Origin: Candidatus Iainarchaeum sp.
GTDB taxonomy: Archaea > Iainarchaeota > Iainarchaeia > Iainarchaeales > CSSED10-239
NCBI GenBank assembly: GCA_037441475.1
Contig: JBBISB010000001.1
Span: 524,946-588,945 of the forward strand
Direction: 5' to 3'
DNA: 64,000 bases
Below the pieces are notes generated by a model that was not told the DNA's origin, ran no database searches, and was given only the letters and a program-made list of their open reading frames with translations. Made by a program: the position numbers and the translations under genes. This document shows, piece after piece, positions 20,086 through 23,173 of this stretch. The first letter of the stretch is position 1. Every line of letters begins with the position of its first letter.

Positions 20086-20943
20086 ATGATCTTTAATAAA
20101 GTAACTCCTCAACAGTTCATTAATAATGTTGAGAGTGTAGTAAATCTTGAAAAGAACCAGTTAAACTCTGCTCTTGAAAAAGAAAGCATAAAAAGTAAGG
20201 CAATTAAATTTACATTATCTGCAACTGACGAGCAACTTAAAAAATATTTAAAAAATTTTACTTCAAAAGAACTTCTGCAAGTCTTTAATGATTTTAAGGC
20301 CCTTAACTACAATCAAAAGAATCTTTTTTTAAATGTCTTAAACTACAATTCTCTTTACCACTCAAACAACAAAGAATCTACTTTCTTCATGCATACCTTA
20401 GATAAAGAGATTTGGAGAATTAAAAAAGGTTTATTAAACACCAACATGCTTTTTCAAACACATCGAAAAGAATGTAAACATACTCTGTCTGGTTTTATAA
20501 GAGCCTTTAAAACAAACTCAATTTTCACAACAAAAATAACTATTGATGGAGAGGTAAGAAGAGTTTTTGTAAAAAACGAGATTGGTTCTCTAAAAGAAAA
20601 AGGAAATGTAGGGTACCATCATCTTATCCTTGATCCAAAGGATATGCATATCTATAACCTTAGTATGATATCAGGAATAACACCTACGAGAATGACTTTA
20701 AAGGAAATCTCTAAACTTAAATTAAATAGTAAAGAAAGACTATTAAGTCTTGATTTTAATCATCTTCAAAAACAAATTCCAAACTACTCTATTGTTAAGT
20801 TTAATATTAAAAAAGAAATGCAAGAGTACCTTAAAAGATACTCAAAAGGAATTAAAGATGCTAGAAGAGAGCATCATGAAAATTTATCTATATCAAAAGT
20901 TAAGTCTAGTAAAAAACCATTACTTAAATTTTTTAAAAAATAA
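20086..20943 (+). CDS. hypothetical protein, lineage-specific family (paralogue of 59871-60788)
   Basis: Shares 'IWRIKKGLL...H..SGFIRAF...ITIDGE...FVK.....G.Y.L.LDPK...IY' with the 305-aa ORF at 59871. Basic tail 'KKPLLKFFKK'. Confidence 0.6.
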   Translation: MIFNKVTPQQFINNVESVVNLEKNQLNSALEKESIKSKAIKFTLSATDEQLKKYLKNFTSKELLQVFNDFKALNYNQKNLFLNVLNYNSLYHSNNKESTFFMHTLDKEIWRIKKGLLNTNMLFQTHRKECKHTLSGFIRAFKTNSIFTTKITIDGEVRRVFVKNEIGSLKEKGNVGYHHLILDPKDMHIYNLSMISGITPTRMTLKEISKLKLNSKERLLSLDFNHLQKQIPNYSIVKFNIKKEMQEYLKRYSKGIKDARREHHENLSISKVKSSKKPLLKFFKK

Positions 20944-20944
20944 T

Positions 20945-23050
20945 TTATTTTTCTTCCATCTCTATTTTTAGAATATCCAAGTAACCAGTAAACTCATTTT
21001 CCATTATTGGGTTTGCACTTGTTATCCTTATTTTTTTTTTAAACAAAGGAGCATCCAAAACAATTGTCTCATACTCCCCTCCTTCTCCAGCAACATTTAT
21101 TCCTTTTTTTTTGTTAATTATCTTAAGATCAATTAAGTCCTCTTTAGTAAGTTTTTTTCCAAGCCAGGTGTCGTTTAAACCATACCCTGCAACCTTAACT
21201 ATGATTACTTCAAATTTATTATCTAACATCTCTTGGAAAACACCCTCTTGTGTCTTGTTCCAAAGAGGAGAAAACATTCTTAAGCCAAGTTCATTACATA
21301 TCTCTTGTATCCTCTCTCTTTGATAATTACTTTTAATAGCTCCAGTAATTATTCCTTGAAGGGAGTATTTTTCTTTAGCCTTTAAGATTAGTTTCTTAAG
21401 GTCCTTAAGCTCTTCTTCCTTTATCCCTTTTGTCTTTTGTAAAACAAATGGTACCTCTAAGGCTTGTGATTGAAGAGAGAGTATCTTATCATCTACTTTT
21501 TGAAACATGTAGGAGTCTGGGTTTTCAGTCATCATTGTCATAAGGCAAGATATCTTATAGTTTTGTTTTGCCATTATGTGAAAGGCAAGGTTTGAGTCCT
21601 TTCCTCCTGAGAAAAGACATCCTAGGTTTAGGTTTTCTTTTTTAGATACTTCTTTTAAAAATTCGCTCTTTTTTAATTTTTTTTCTTTAGATATTTTTTC
21701 AATCATTTTATCAAATCCACTTCCATATTGTGCTGCTGTTTTTTTTCTCTGGTAATCTTCTTTTAGAAGATTTATTTTTTTTCCAATTTTTCTTAAAACC
21801 ACTTTATTTTCTTCATTGTTTATTTTTTCTTTTTCTTCAAGTAAAAAAGATTCTTCAATAACCTCTTTATCAAGGTATGGTAATCTTACCTCTATGTTGT
21901 TGTTCGTACAAACAACGTCCTCTCTATAAAGATCATTTTCATGCATTTGGTATAACAGGTTTATGCTGTCTTTTAAAACATCAGTTGATTCTTTAAACCT
22001 CGAGTATCCTGCAAACAACTCATCTGCACCAAGTCCAGAGAATATAACCTTTGCTCCATCCTCTCTTGCTTTTAAAGAGGCAAAGTATATAGGTAAGGAC
22101 ACTCCTATTTTTATAGGGTTTGATGACTCTATTTTTTCAACAAGTAAAGGAATTGTCTCTTCAATTTCTTTTTTATTTACTTTTATTTTTTCAACCTTAA
22201 AGCCATACTCCTTCTCTGTTCTTAAAACATTTGAAAGGTCCTTTGGGTCTATTACATTCCCTGCATATGCAAAATATCCTTTGAAAGGTATGTTGTTGTC
22301 TTTTAATATTTTTGAAATTAAAAGGGAGTCAAGACCTGAACTATAAAGCACAGCAAGCTTTTGTTTTTCAGGAACTCTTAAAAGAACTGCTTGTTTAATC
22401 TTTTCATACATCTTTTCTGTTGTTGTCTTTTTCTTTTCTATTTTATAGAAAGGTATTTTCTTAAAAGTGATTTTGTTTTTTAAAACTTCATAAAAAAGTT
22501 CTTTTCTAGGATCAAGAAACTGAATGTTTTTAAAACCAATTTTTTCTAAAACCTTTTTTTCAGAGGCAAAGCCAAAAGATTTATTTTCTAAGGAAAACCA
22601 TAGTGGCTTAATCCCAAGAAGATCTCTTCTTAGGTATATTTTATTTCCATCATAAAAGCAAACAGCATATGGTCCATTCATCTCTTCAAATATCTTAAAA
22701 CCAATCTTCTCTATTCCCTTAATAATAAAGTCAGAGTCATTTTTAACCTTAATCTTATATTTTAAAGAAAGTTCTTTGTAATTATAGATCTCACAGTTTG
22801 AAACAAGTACTTTTCCTTTATGTACTATTGGTTGAGATACATTTCCTGTTATAGAAAGTAAGTTATGTGCAAAAACAACACCTGTAGATATGTTTTCTTT
22901 ATTAAAGTTGTTAATCTCCTTAGAATAAACACACCTACCATTAAAGTAAACTCCATTATTATCCAAACCTCTTTTTTCTAATATCTTAAGGGAGGCAATA
23001 ATCTTTTCTTTACTTTCAGGGACATTAACCAGTCCAATTATTGAGCACAT
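20945..23050 (-). CDS. fusion protein: asparagine-synthase-like glutamine amidotransferase/PP-loop synthetase plus Dph6-like diphthamide synthetase (DUF71) domain
   Basis: N-terminus 'MCSIIG' (Ntn Cys2), 'AVLYSSGLDS' PP-loop, 'FSGLGADELFAGY'. From about residue 474: 'LGCLFSGGKDSNLAFH', 'SPLWNK', 'AGEGGEYETIVLDAPLF', typical of the MJ0570/Dph6 N-domain. Confidence 0.8.
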   Translation of the reverse strand: MCSIIGLVNVPESKEKIIASLKILEKRGLDNNGVYFNGRCVYSKEINNFNKENISTGVVFAHNLLSITGNVSQPIVHKGKVLVSNCEIYNYKELSLKYKIKVKNDSDFIIKGIEKIGFKIFEEMNGPYAVCFYDGNKIYLRRDLLGIKPLWFSLENKSFGFASEKKVLEKIGFKNIQFLDPRKELFYEVLKNKITFKKIPFYKIEKKKTTTEKMYEKIKQAVLLRVPEKQKLAVLYSSGLDSLLISKILKDNNIPFKGYFAYAGNVIDPKDLSNVLRTEKEYGFKVEKIKVNKKEIEETIPLLVEKIESSNPIKIGVSLPIYFASLKAREDGAKVIFSGLGADELFAGYSRFKESTDVLKDSINLLYQMHENDLYREDVVCTNNNIEVRLPYLDKEVIEESFLLEEKEKINNEENKVVLRKIGKKINLLKEDYQRKKTAAQYGSGFDKMIEKISKEKKLKKSEFLKEVSKKENLNLGCLFSGGKDSNLAFHIMAKQNYKISCLMTMMTENPDSYMFQKVDDKILSLQSQALEVPFVLQKTKGIKEEELKDLKKLILKAKEKYSLQGIITGAIKSNYQRERIQEICNELGLRMFSPLWNKTQEGVFQEMLDNKFEVIIVKVAGYGLNDTWLGKKLTKEDLIDLKIINKKKGINVAGEGGEYETIVLDAPLFKKKIRITSANPIMENEFTGYLDILKIEMEEK

Positions 23051-23066
23051 GTTTTAATGATTAGTT

Positions 23067-23173
23067 TTTTAATATTTATTTTAATATAATATATTTTAAT
23101 ATAATATATTTTAATATTTATTTTAATATAATATATTTTAATATTTATTTTAATATAATATATTTTAATATAA
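23067..23173. repeat. AT-only tandem repeat (27-bp unit ttttaatatttattttaatataatata x3, plus 16-bp sub-units)
   Basis: Read directly. It lies in the 255-bp divergent intergenic region between the asnB-dph6 fusion (-) and top6B (+). Confidence 0.85.

Follow-up and report, generated by a model that had tools for sequence, protein, structure and literature searches.

A long-form Dph6 with an AsnB-like amidotransferase module as the probable diphthine–ammonia ligase of an Iainarchaeota archaeon

Here, we describe a gene in a 64,000-nucleotide stretch of DNA from Candidatus Iainarchaeum sp. (contig JBBISB010000001.1, positions 524,946 to 588,945 of the forward strand; hereafter, the window), whose product joins an amidotransferase module resembling asparagine synthetase B (AsnB) to Dph6, the diphthine–ammonia ligase. 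The diphthamide modification of elongation factor 2 (EF-2), at which diphtheria-type toxins are directed, has been conserved across archaea and eukaryotes; the ammonia source for the last step of its synthesis is only partly understood, and the fused form lends itself naturally to testing whether the amidation depends on glutamine. We conclude with good confidence that this gene is the archaeon's only diphthine–ammonia ligase and that it belongs to a known long form of the enzyme, in which the AsnB-like amidotransferase module lies ahead of Dph6. The gene and its parts are as follows:

20945..23050, minus strand: fusion gene, long-form Dph6, with a class II glutamine amidotransferase (GAT-II), a short AsnB-like PP-loop domain and Dph6 (ORF translation, Pfam, NCBIfam and AlphaFold2)
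22466..23050, minus strand: class II (N-terminal nucleophile, Ntn) glutaminase domain, residues 1-195 (GATase_7 and GATase_6 matches, conservation and fold)
23045-23047, minus strand: codon of the catalytic Cys2 of the glutaminase domain
21695..22408, minus strand: short AsnB-like PP-loop (ATP pyrophosphatase) domain, residues 215-452 (Asn_synthase match and alignment to 1ct9)
22325-22342, minus strand: PP-loop SSGLDS of the AsnB-like domain
22031-22033, minus strand: codon of Leu340, at the position of the catalytic Glu of true asparagine synthetases (alignment to 1ct9)
21626..21694, minus strand: Lys-rich linker, residues 453-475, predicted to form two helices (AlphaFold2 model and conservation)
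20963..21625, minus strand: Dph6 (diphthine–ammonia ligase, DUF71) domain, residues 476-696 (TIGR03679, PF01902 and fold)
21593-21610, minus strand: PP-loop SGGKDS of the Dph6 domain, residues 481-486
20945-20947, minus strand: stop codon of the fusion gene (ORF translation)

The initial annotation, made from the DNA letters, had read this open reading frame (ORF) as one polypeptide joining an AsnB-type amidotransferase/PP-loop synthetase to Dph6, and our results bear this out: the ORF list and the translation give 701 codons plus a stop and no internal stop, Pfam and NCBIfam assign three domains to the 701-residue product, and every motif quoted by the initial annotation, which left the strand unstated, is present in the translation. 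Along the chain, MCSIIG starts at residue 1, YSSGLDS at 236 and SGLGADELFAGY at 338, followed by FSGGKDS at 480, SPLWNK at 594 and GEGGEYET at 655. GATase_7 matches residues 72-169 (E 3e-18; about 54-169 together with GATase_6), Asn_synthase matches residues 215-355 and a second stretch (E 4e-33), and Diphthami_syn_2 (PF01902) matches residues 478-696 (E 5e-61). The archaeal Dph6 model of NCBIfam, TIGR03679, scores 247.3 bits over residues 478-694, above its cut-off of 197.3.

Both its sequence and its family matches identify the C-terminal domain as a bona fide Dph6. It aligns to the stand-alone enzymes PF0828 (3rjz) and PH1257 (2d13) with an E value of 5e-51 and carries the SGGKDS and EGGE.E motifs. 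Comparison with the Dph6-specific residues listed for PF0828 by de Crecy-Lagard et al. (Biol Direct 7:32, 2012; PMC3541065) places S44, Y45, E78 and Y103 opposite S513, Y514, E547 and Y576 of the fusion, and Q104, E183, E186 and E188 opposite Q577, E656, E659 and E661; with the exception of Y514, each of these reaches at least 90% conservation among family members, and A149 aligns ambiguously, beside A621/G622. The stand-alone proteins PF0828 (3rjz, 3rk0 and 3rk1) and PH1257, as well as yeast Dph6, share SGGKDS and EGGE.E with the fusion and have the same predicted reaction, from diphthine, ATP and NH3 to diphthamide; the fusion carries 475 N-terminal residues beyond the stand-alone form, whereas yeast Dph6 has C-terminal RidA-like domains instead (PMC3541065). 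The host genome (0.77 Mb in two contigs, 89.5% complete) contains the other expected partners, for which a search had been recommended in the initial annotation: Dph2 (221.9 bits), Dph5 (182.4 bits, with a cut-off of 114.3) and archaeal EF-2 (974 bits), whose target His lies in HEDAIHRGPAQ (IHRG). Since all of these are present and the fusion gene is the sole PF01902 locus found in the genome by profile search, it must provide the Dph6 step, and the fusion protein is thus very probably the Dph6 of this organism.

The initial annotation knew of no earlier description of this architecture, and this part of it does not stand. AsnB–DUF71 fusions, consisting of GAT-II, the Asn_synthase PP-loop domain and DUF71, were named in 2012 in Methanohalophilus, Methanosalsum and Ca. 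Nanosalinarum (PMC3541065), and the same paper published the identical hypothesis, namely that the glutaminase supplies NH3; the question of which PP-loop domain, the first or the second, consumes the ammonia was raised by one of its reviewers. The proteins of Methanohalophilus mahii, Methanosalsum zhilinae and 'Ca. Nanosalinarum sp. J07AB56' have an identical order of the three domains, with the DUF71 part in the Dph6 subfamily. The present host, an archaeon of the DPANN phylum Iainarchaeota, represents a lineage unsampled in 2012, and its protein, with about 40% identity to the methanogen fusions, shows nothing different in kind. Both the fusion architecture and the idea of ammonia supply are therefore already known. 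Apart from the comparative paper of 2012, our literature search retrieved general work on Dph6 but no study of the fusion by biochemical or structural means, a point that weighs against a firm mechanistic reading. Because glutamine-dependent amidation has been a published suggestion since 2012, the locus adds no new question in this respect; what stays useful is that the middle domain is probably not an asparagine synthetase, together with its role across the four architectures described below.

The survey of the fusion across archaea that the initial annotation had suggested shows it to be common and widespread. The protein database returned more than 1,000 matches, and nearly all of the best 120, drawn from many independent assemblies, are full length, about 700 residues long and composed of the same three domains, several of them already named diphthine–ammonia ligase. 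At least 573 relatives are found in species-representative genomes. Hundreds of archaeal species, from DPANN phyla, Methanosarcinales and other euryarchaeal lineages, carry the full-length fusion. Named examples come from Iainarchaeum, Woesearchaeota, Nanoarchaeota, Nanohaloarchaea, Altiarchaeota, Methanolobus (including the cultured M. bombayensis), Methanomethylovorans, ANME-3, Methanophagales, Syntrophoarchaeum and metagenome-assembled genomes (MAGs) of Halobacteria.

The N-terminal glutaminase residues are intact and conserved across 119 homologues, so that the refuting condition named in the initial annotation, non-functional glutaminase residues, finds no support. C2, R27, G28, D30, N85, E87 and D105 are at least 97% conserved, with C2, R27, N85, E87 and D105 each kept in at least 117 of the 119 proteins. 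They match the glutaminase network listed for human asparagine synthetase (ASNS) (PMC6748925), in which Gly75 corresponds to a conserved Cys86 in the fusion. A further residue, R389, is shared by all 119 three-domain proteins, and each of the six relatives without a glutaminase has a different residue there (6/6); R389 corresponds to human R416, at the interface between glutaminase and synthetase (PMC6748925), so that its retention with the glutaminase and replacement without it fit a glutaminase docked on the middle domain as in AsnB. From the conservation of the catalytic residues and of R389, we predict that the glutaminase is active and coupled to the AsnB-like domain. Some homologues keep an N-terminal domain of glutaminase size that lacks Cys2 (L025:944-2275 on the minus strand, a 439-residue ORF in L110, and L093:854-3007), starting with MAS, MNA or, in a fused protein from a Halobacteria MAG, MYRITG; these look like dead glutaminases.

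An AlphaFold2 model built with 104 homologues has a mean predicted local distance difference test (pLDDT) score of 93.9 and a predicted template modelling (pTM) score of 0.88 over the 701 residues, with no segment below 70. The first two domains of the model superpose on E. coli AsnB (1ct9) and human ASNS (6gq3) with target-normalised template modelling (TM) scores of 0.77-0.81, the value for 1ct9 being 0.81, with alike fold and domain packing. The Dph6 domain superposes on PF0828 (3rjz) and PH1257 (2d13) with TM scores of 0.93-0.95 and a root mean square deviation of 1.4-1.6. In this structure comparison, no solved chain spans all three domains. The linker is modelled with a pLDDT of about 90 or more as helices 446-456 and 461-468, and its residues K461, L465 and N473 are each at least 90% conserved; invariant residues are present in all three domains and in the helical linker. 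The three domains are thus predicted to be compactly arranged around a confidently modelled helical linker, in terms of model confidence rather than measurement. A predicted docking of residues 1-458 to residues 472-701, each given as an alignment, scored 0.01; as it was run without controls, we use it neither for nor against any reading.

The middle domain combines the core of an AsnB-type ATP site with the loss of a catalytic residue. As in AsnB and ASNS, an Ntn-Cys glutaminase is packed on a PP-loop synthetase in which the D/E-E pair, the Lys and the Glu/Arg of the interface are kept, whereas Glu348 (E. coli) or Glu364 (human) is replaced by Leu. The retained AsnB-type motifs comprise the PP-loop, D343/E344, D373, R376 and K437, the last of which was equated with K449/K466 by motif comparison, as the printed 1ct9 alignment ends at residue 421. 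S237, G239, D241 and S242 of the PP-loop are invariant in the 119 homologues, as are E344, R376, D378, R389, D394, K437 and the QYGS motif. Columns at least 90% conserved make up 28% of the middle domain and 27% of Dph6, and this equal conservation indicates that the middle domain is under selection. In the 1ct9 alignment, L340 lies opposite E348 of E. coli AsnB, with a local motif SGLGADE versus SGEGSDE, and the 119 homologues have Leu (113), Ser (5) or Ile (1) at this position and never Glu. Human ASNS carrying E364A or E364Q at the equivalent position is inactive (PMC6748925). By comparison, a bona fide AsnB of 595 residues from the same phylum has Glu here as well as an insertion of about 60 residues, which is among the parts missing from the AsnB module of the fusion, shorter than AsnB by about 100 residues. 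The scores fall below both AsnB-level cut-offs, with 233 bits against 267.1 for the equivalog TIGR01536 and 181.9 bits against 499 for PRK09431. Given the replaced Glu, the shorter module and these scores, the substrate is probably not aspartate; that the protein is a true asparagine synthetase appears improbable, and the initial annotation's bifunctional alternative, in the form that includes asparagine synthesis, is weakened accordingly. Tentatively, the AsnB-like module may have a non-aspartate substrate of its own. In practice, the middle domain cannot be annotated as an asparagine synthetase, a point of consequence when metabolism is reconstructed from DPANN genomes.

To place this domain in its phylum, we surveyed 215 genomes, 200 of which have a PF01902 match and 195 a PF00733 match. 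Classified by the size of the open frame, the best 150 Dph6 matches comprise 82 stand-alone, 43 three-domain, 18 two-domain and 7 other forms. The view that archaeal Dph6 is normally a stand-alone protein thus holds only in part for this phylum, judging by these sizes. The short Glu-less domain is carried by four architectures, GAT+PP+Dph6, PP+Dph6, GAT+PP and PP alone, of which the latter three are described here from read examples of each form:

PP+Dph6, 495-523 residues: no glutaminase; includes the sister genus, with 45% identity over residues 233-701
GAT+PP, about 470 residues: in genomes with a stand-alone, unlinked Dph6
PP alone, about 270 residues: in genomes with a stand-alone, unlinked Dph6

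At the catalytic position, the fused forms have L, M, I or C, with S or N in two other lineages, and the unfused forms have Q or S; Glu was present in none of the examined forms. The unfused short proteins share with the fusion the compact PP-loop domain and a C-terminal A.QYGS motif. NCBIfam gives the short AsnB-like proteins only sub-threshold AsnB matches and no family name, and their matches in the PDB are limited to AsnB, ASNS and CarA. In a FastTree phylogeny of the PP-loop domain rooted on true AsnB, the fused proteins form one clade of 34 tips with moderate support (Shimodaira–Hasegawa (SH)-like 0.74), and the unfused short forms are its sister clade (21 tips, SH-like 0.98), the two clades together being supported at 0.99. 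The PP-loop domain of the Iainarchaeum fusion groups with fused proteins of Methanolobus, Methanophagales, Halobacteria, Nanosalina, Altiarchaeota and Woesearchaeota, which points, with moderate confidence, to an ancestry shared with the fusions of Methanosarcinales and Nanohaloarchaea. Two congeners, G028 (C1:50709-51545) and G029 (C14:7154-8197), each have an extra Asn_synthase match (E about 1e-80) in frames of 375 and 593 residues that look like bona fide AsnB by score and size; unlike in these two, the fusion is the only AsnB-family (PF00733) gene in the host genome.

Taken together, we propose that the Dph6 domain would adenylate the carboxylate of diphthine on EF-2 and then amidate it, while the glutaminase would hydrolyse glutamine and, as in AsnB, deliver the ammonia to the AsnB-like domain on which it is packed. 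The AsnB-like domain would then be an ATP-binding unit, catalytically or structurally necessary, that makes no asparagine; it may relay or locally supply ammonia to the tethered Dph6 site, or it may amidate another carboxylate. That the Dph6 site actually draws on ammonia derived from glutamine is plausible, although we place it slightly short of an even chance, given several points that weigh against it. Dph6 works elsewhere without an AsnB-like partner: one order-level group of the same class (f34) has Dph6 but almost no Asn_synthase match, and a Sulfolobus control genome shows the same pattern. Relatives in the sister genus retain PP+Dph6 after loss of the glutaminase, suggesting that glutamine is dispensable for this core; five such glutaminase-less genomes each have one GATase_7 frame, of 466-622 residues, and the one that was read is GlmS, with SIS domains. 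The unfused AsnB-like gene and dph6 are not neighbours in the phylum. By homology, the ammonia tunnel would end in the AsnB-like site and not in that of Dph6, and against a simple feeder model stand the full ATP site kept by the middle domain, its occurrence in unfused form, the persistence of the core without a glutaminase and the lineages in which Dph6 is present but an AsnB-like gene is altogether absent. We also entertain the unlikely scenario that the short Glu-less AsnB-like domain, present in 195 of the 215 genomes, is an uncharacterised amidoligase family of its own, which in the fused clade would cooperate with Dph6 on EF-2. The protein would in that case be a glutamine-dependent diphthamide synthetase with two sites, and not a Dph6 to which an accessory has been added. 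The middle domain might, for example, be the site where glutamine-derived ammonia meets activated diphthine, and the hydrophobic Leu in place of Glu could accommodate the trimethylammonium group.

An alternative is that the protein houses two independent activities, with GAT-II and the AsnB-like domain forming a self-contained, glutamine-dependent amidotransferase for a non-aspartate carboxylate, Dph6 using free or leaked ammonia, and the fusion reflecting co-expression or accident. The unfused occurrence of the short Glu-less domain, at about 470 or 270 residues and alongside an unlinked Dph6, agrees with this, as do the strong support of the unfused sister clade, the invariance of the AsnB-like PP-loop and catalytic Lys, and the coexistence of fused and unfused copies in some genomes (e.g., G137, G079 and G171). 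Yet retention of the fusion within a single clade that spans very distant archaea suggests that linkage is advantageous; moreover, the linker is conserved and modelled as rigid, and our analysis yielded no candidate substrate, the genes conserved beside the unfused copies being without a Pfam match. We therefore regard two independent activities as a possible but somewhat doubtful account of the protein.

If the N-terminal two domains were instead a genuine glutamine-dependent asparagine synthetase, as the 2012 paper and the bifunctional alternative of the initial annotation allow, the protein would make both free asparagine and diphthamide. The host genome does need free asparagine, since it has an asparaginyl-tRNA synthetase (AsnRS) above cut-off, no GatB (only a GatE-like frame) and no other Asn_synthase locus, and most AsnB-type motifs are retained in the fusion. 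This explanation is nevertheless quite unlikely, because Leu340 stands in place of a Glu that no family member has and that the 595-residue AsnB of the same phylum does have, because the scores are under both equivalog cut-offs and because about 100 AsnB residues are missing. DPANN archaea generally scavenge amino acids, which also counts against it. Finally, the chance that an assembly or frameshift error has joined adjacent asnB-like and dph6 genes is negligible. Other genomes of the phylum do have the two genes apart, and nothing else in favour of an artefact was found at this locus; the stop or frameshift between the halves that would have betrayed two genes is absent from the 701 codons, the junction recurs in more than 100 independent full-length homologues with identities down to 41%, the linker residues are conserved, and the fold model is confident throughout the junction.

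The fusion gene is monocistronic, lying between convergent neighbours on its 3' side (a 285-residue ORF immediately adjacent, a Rio1 kinase and a KH protein) and divergently transcribed neighbours on its 5' side (topoisomerase VI B and A), none of which links to diphthamide. The immediate 3' neighbour is the following:

20086-20943, plus strand: 285-residue ORF without a Pfam match, convergent with the fusion gene and ending one base before its stop codon

Elsewhere in the phylum, PP+Dph6 genes without a glutaminase lie, in one genus (L012/G068 and L013/G065), directly downstream of two ORFs whose translations, judged by eye, look PurL/PurQ-like (FGAM-synthase). Downstream of unfused AsnB-like genes, in tail-to-tail orientation, lie genes of three small protein families (about 172, 112 and 100 residues), which recur in 16, 12 and 10 of 22 unfused loci (L017:1614-2129, L016:2770-3105, L016:3101-3400 and their equivalents), have no Pfam match and have no homologue within the window; their recurrence may be plain synteny, as many of these genomes are related. 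In the window itself, the divergent intergenic region upstream of the fusion gene is filled, up to the topoisomerase VI B gene, by an AT-rich tandem repeat array at 23052-23173, with periods of 15, 27 and 42, about 3-7 copies and 86-92% matches.

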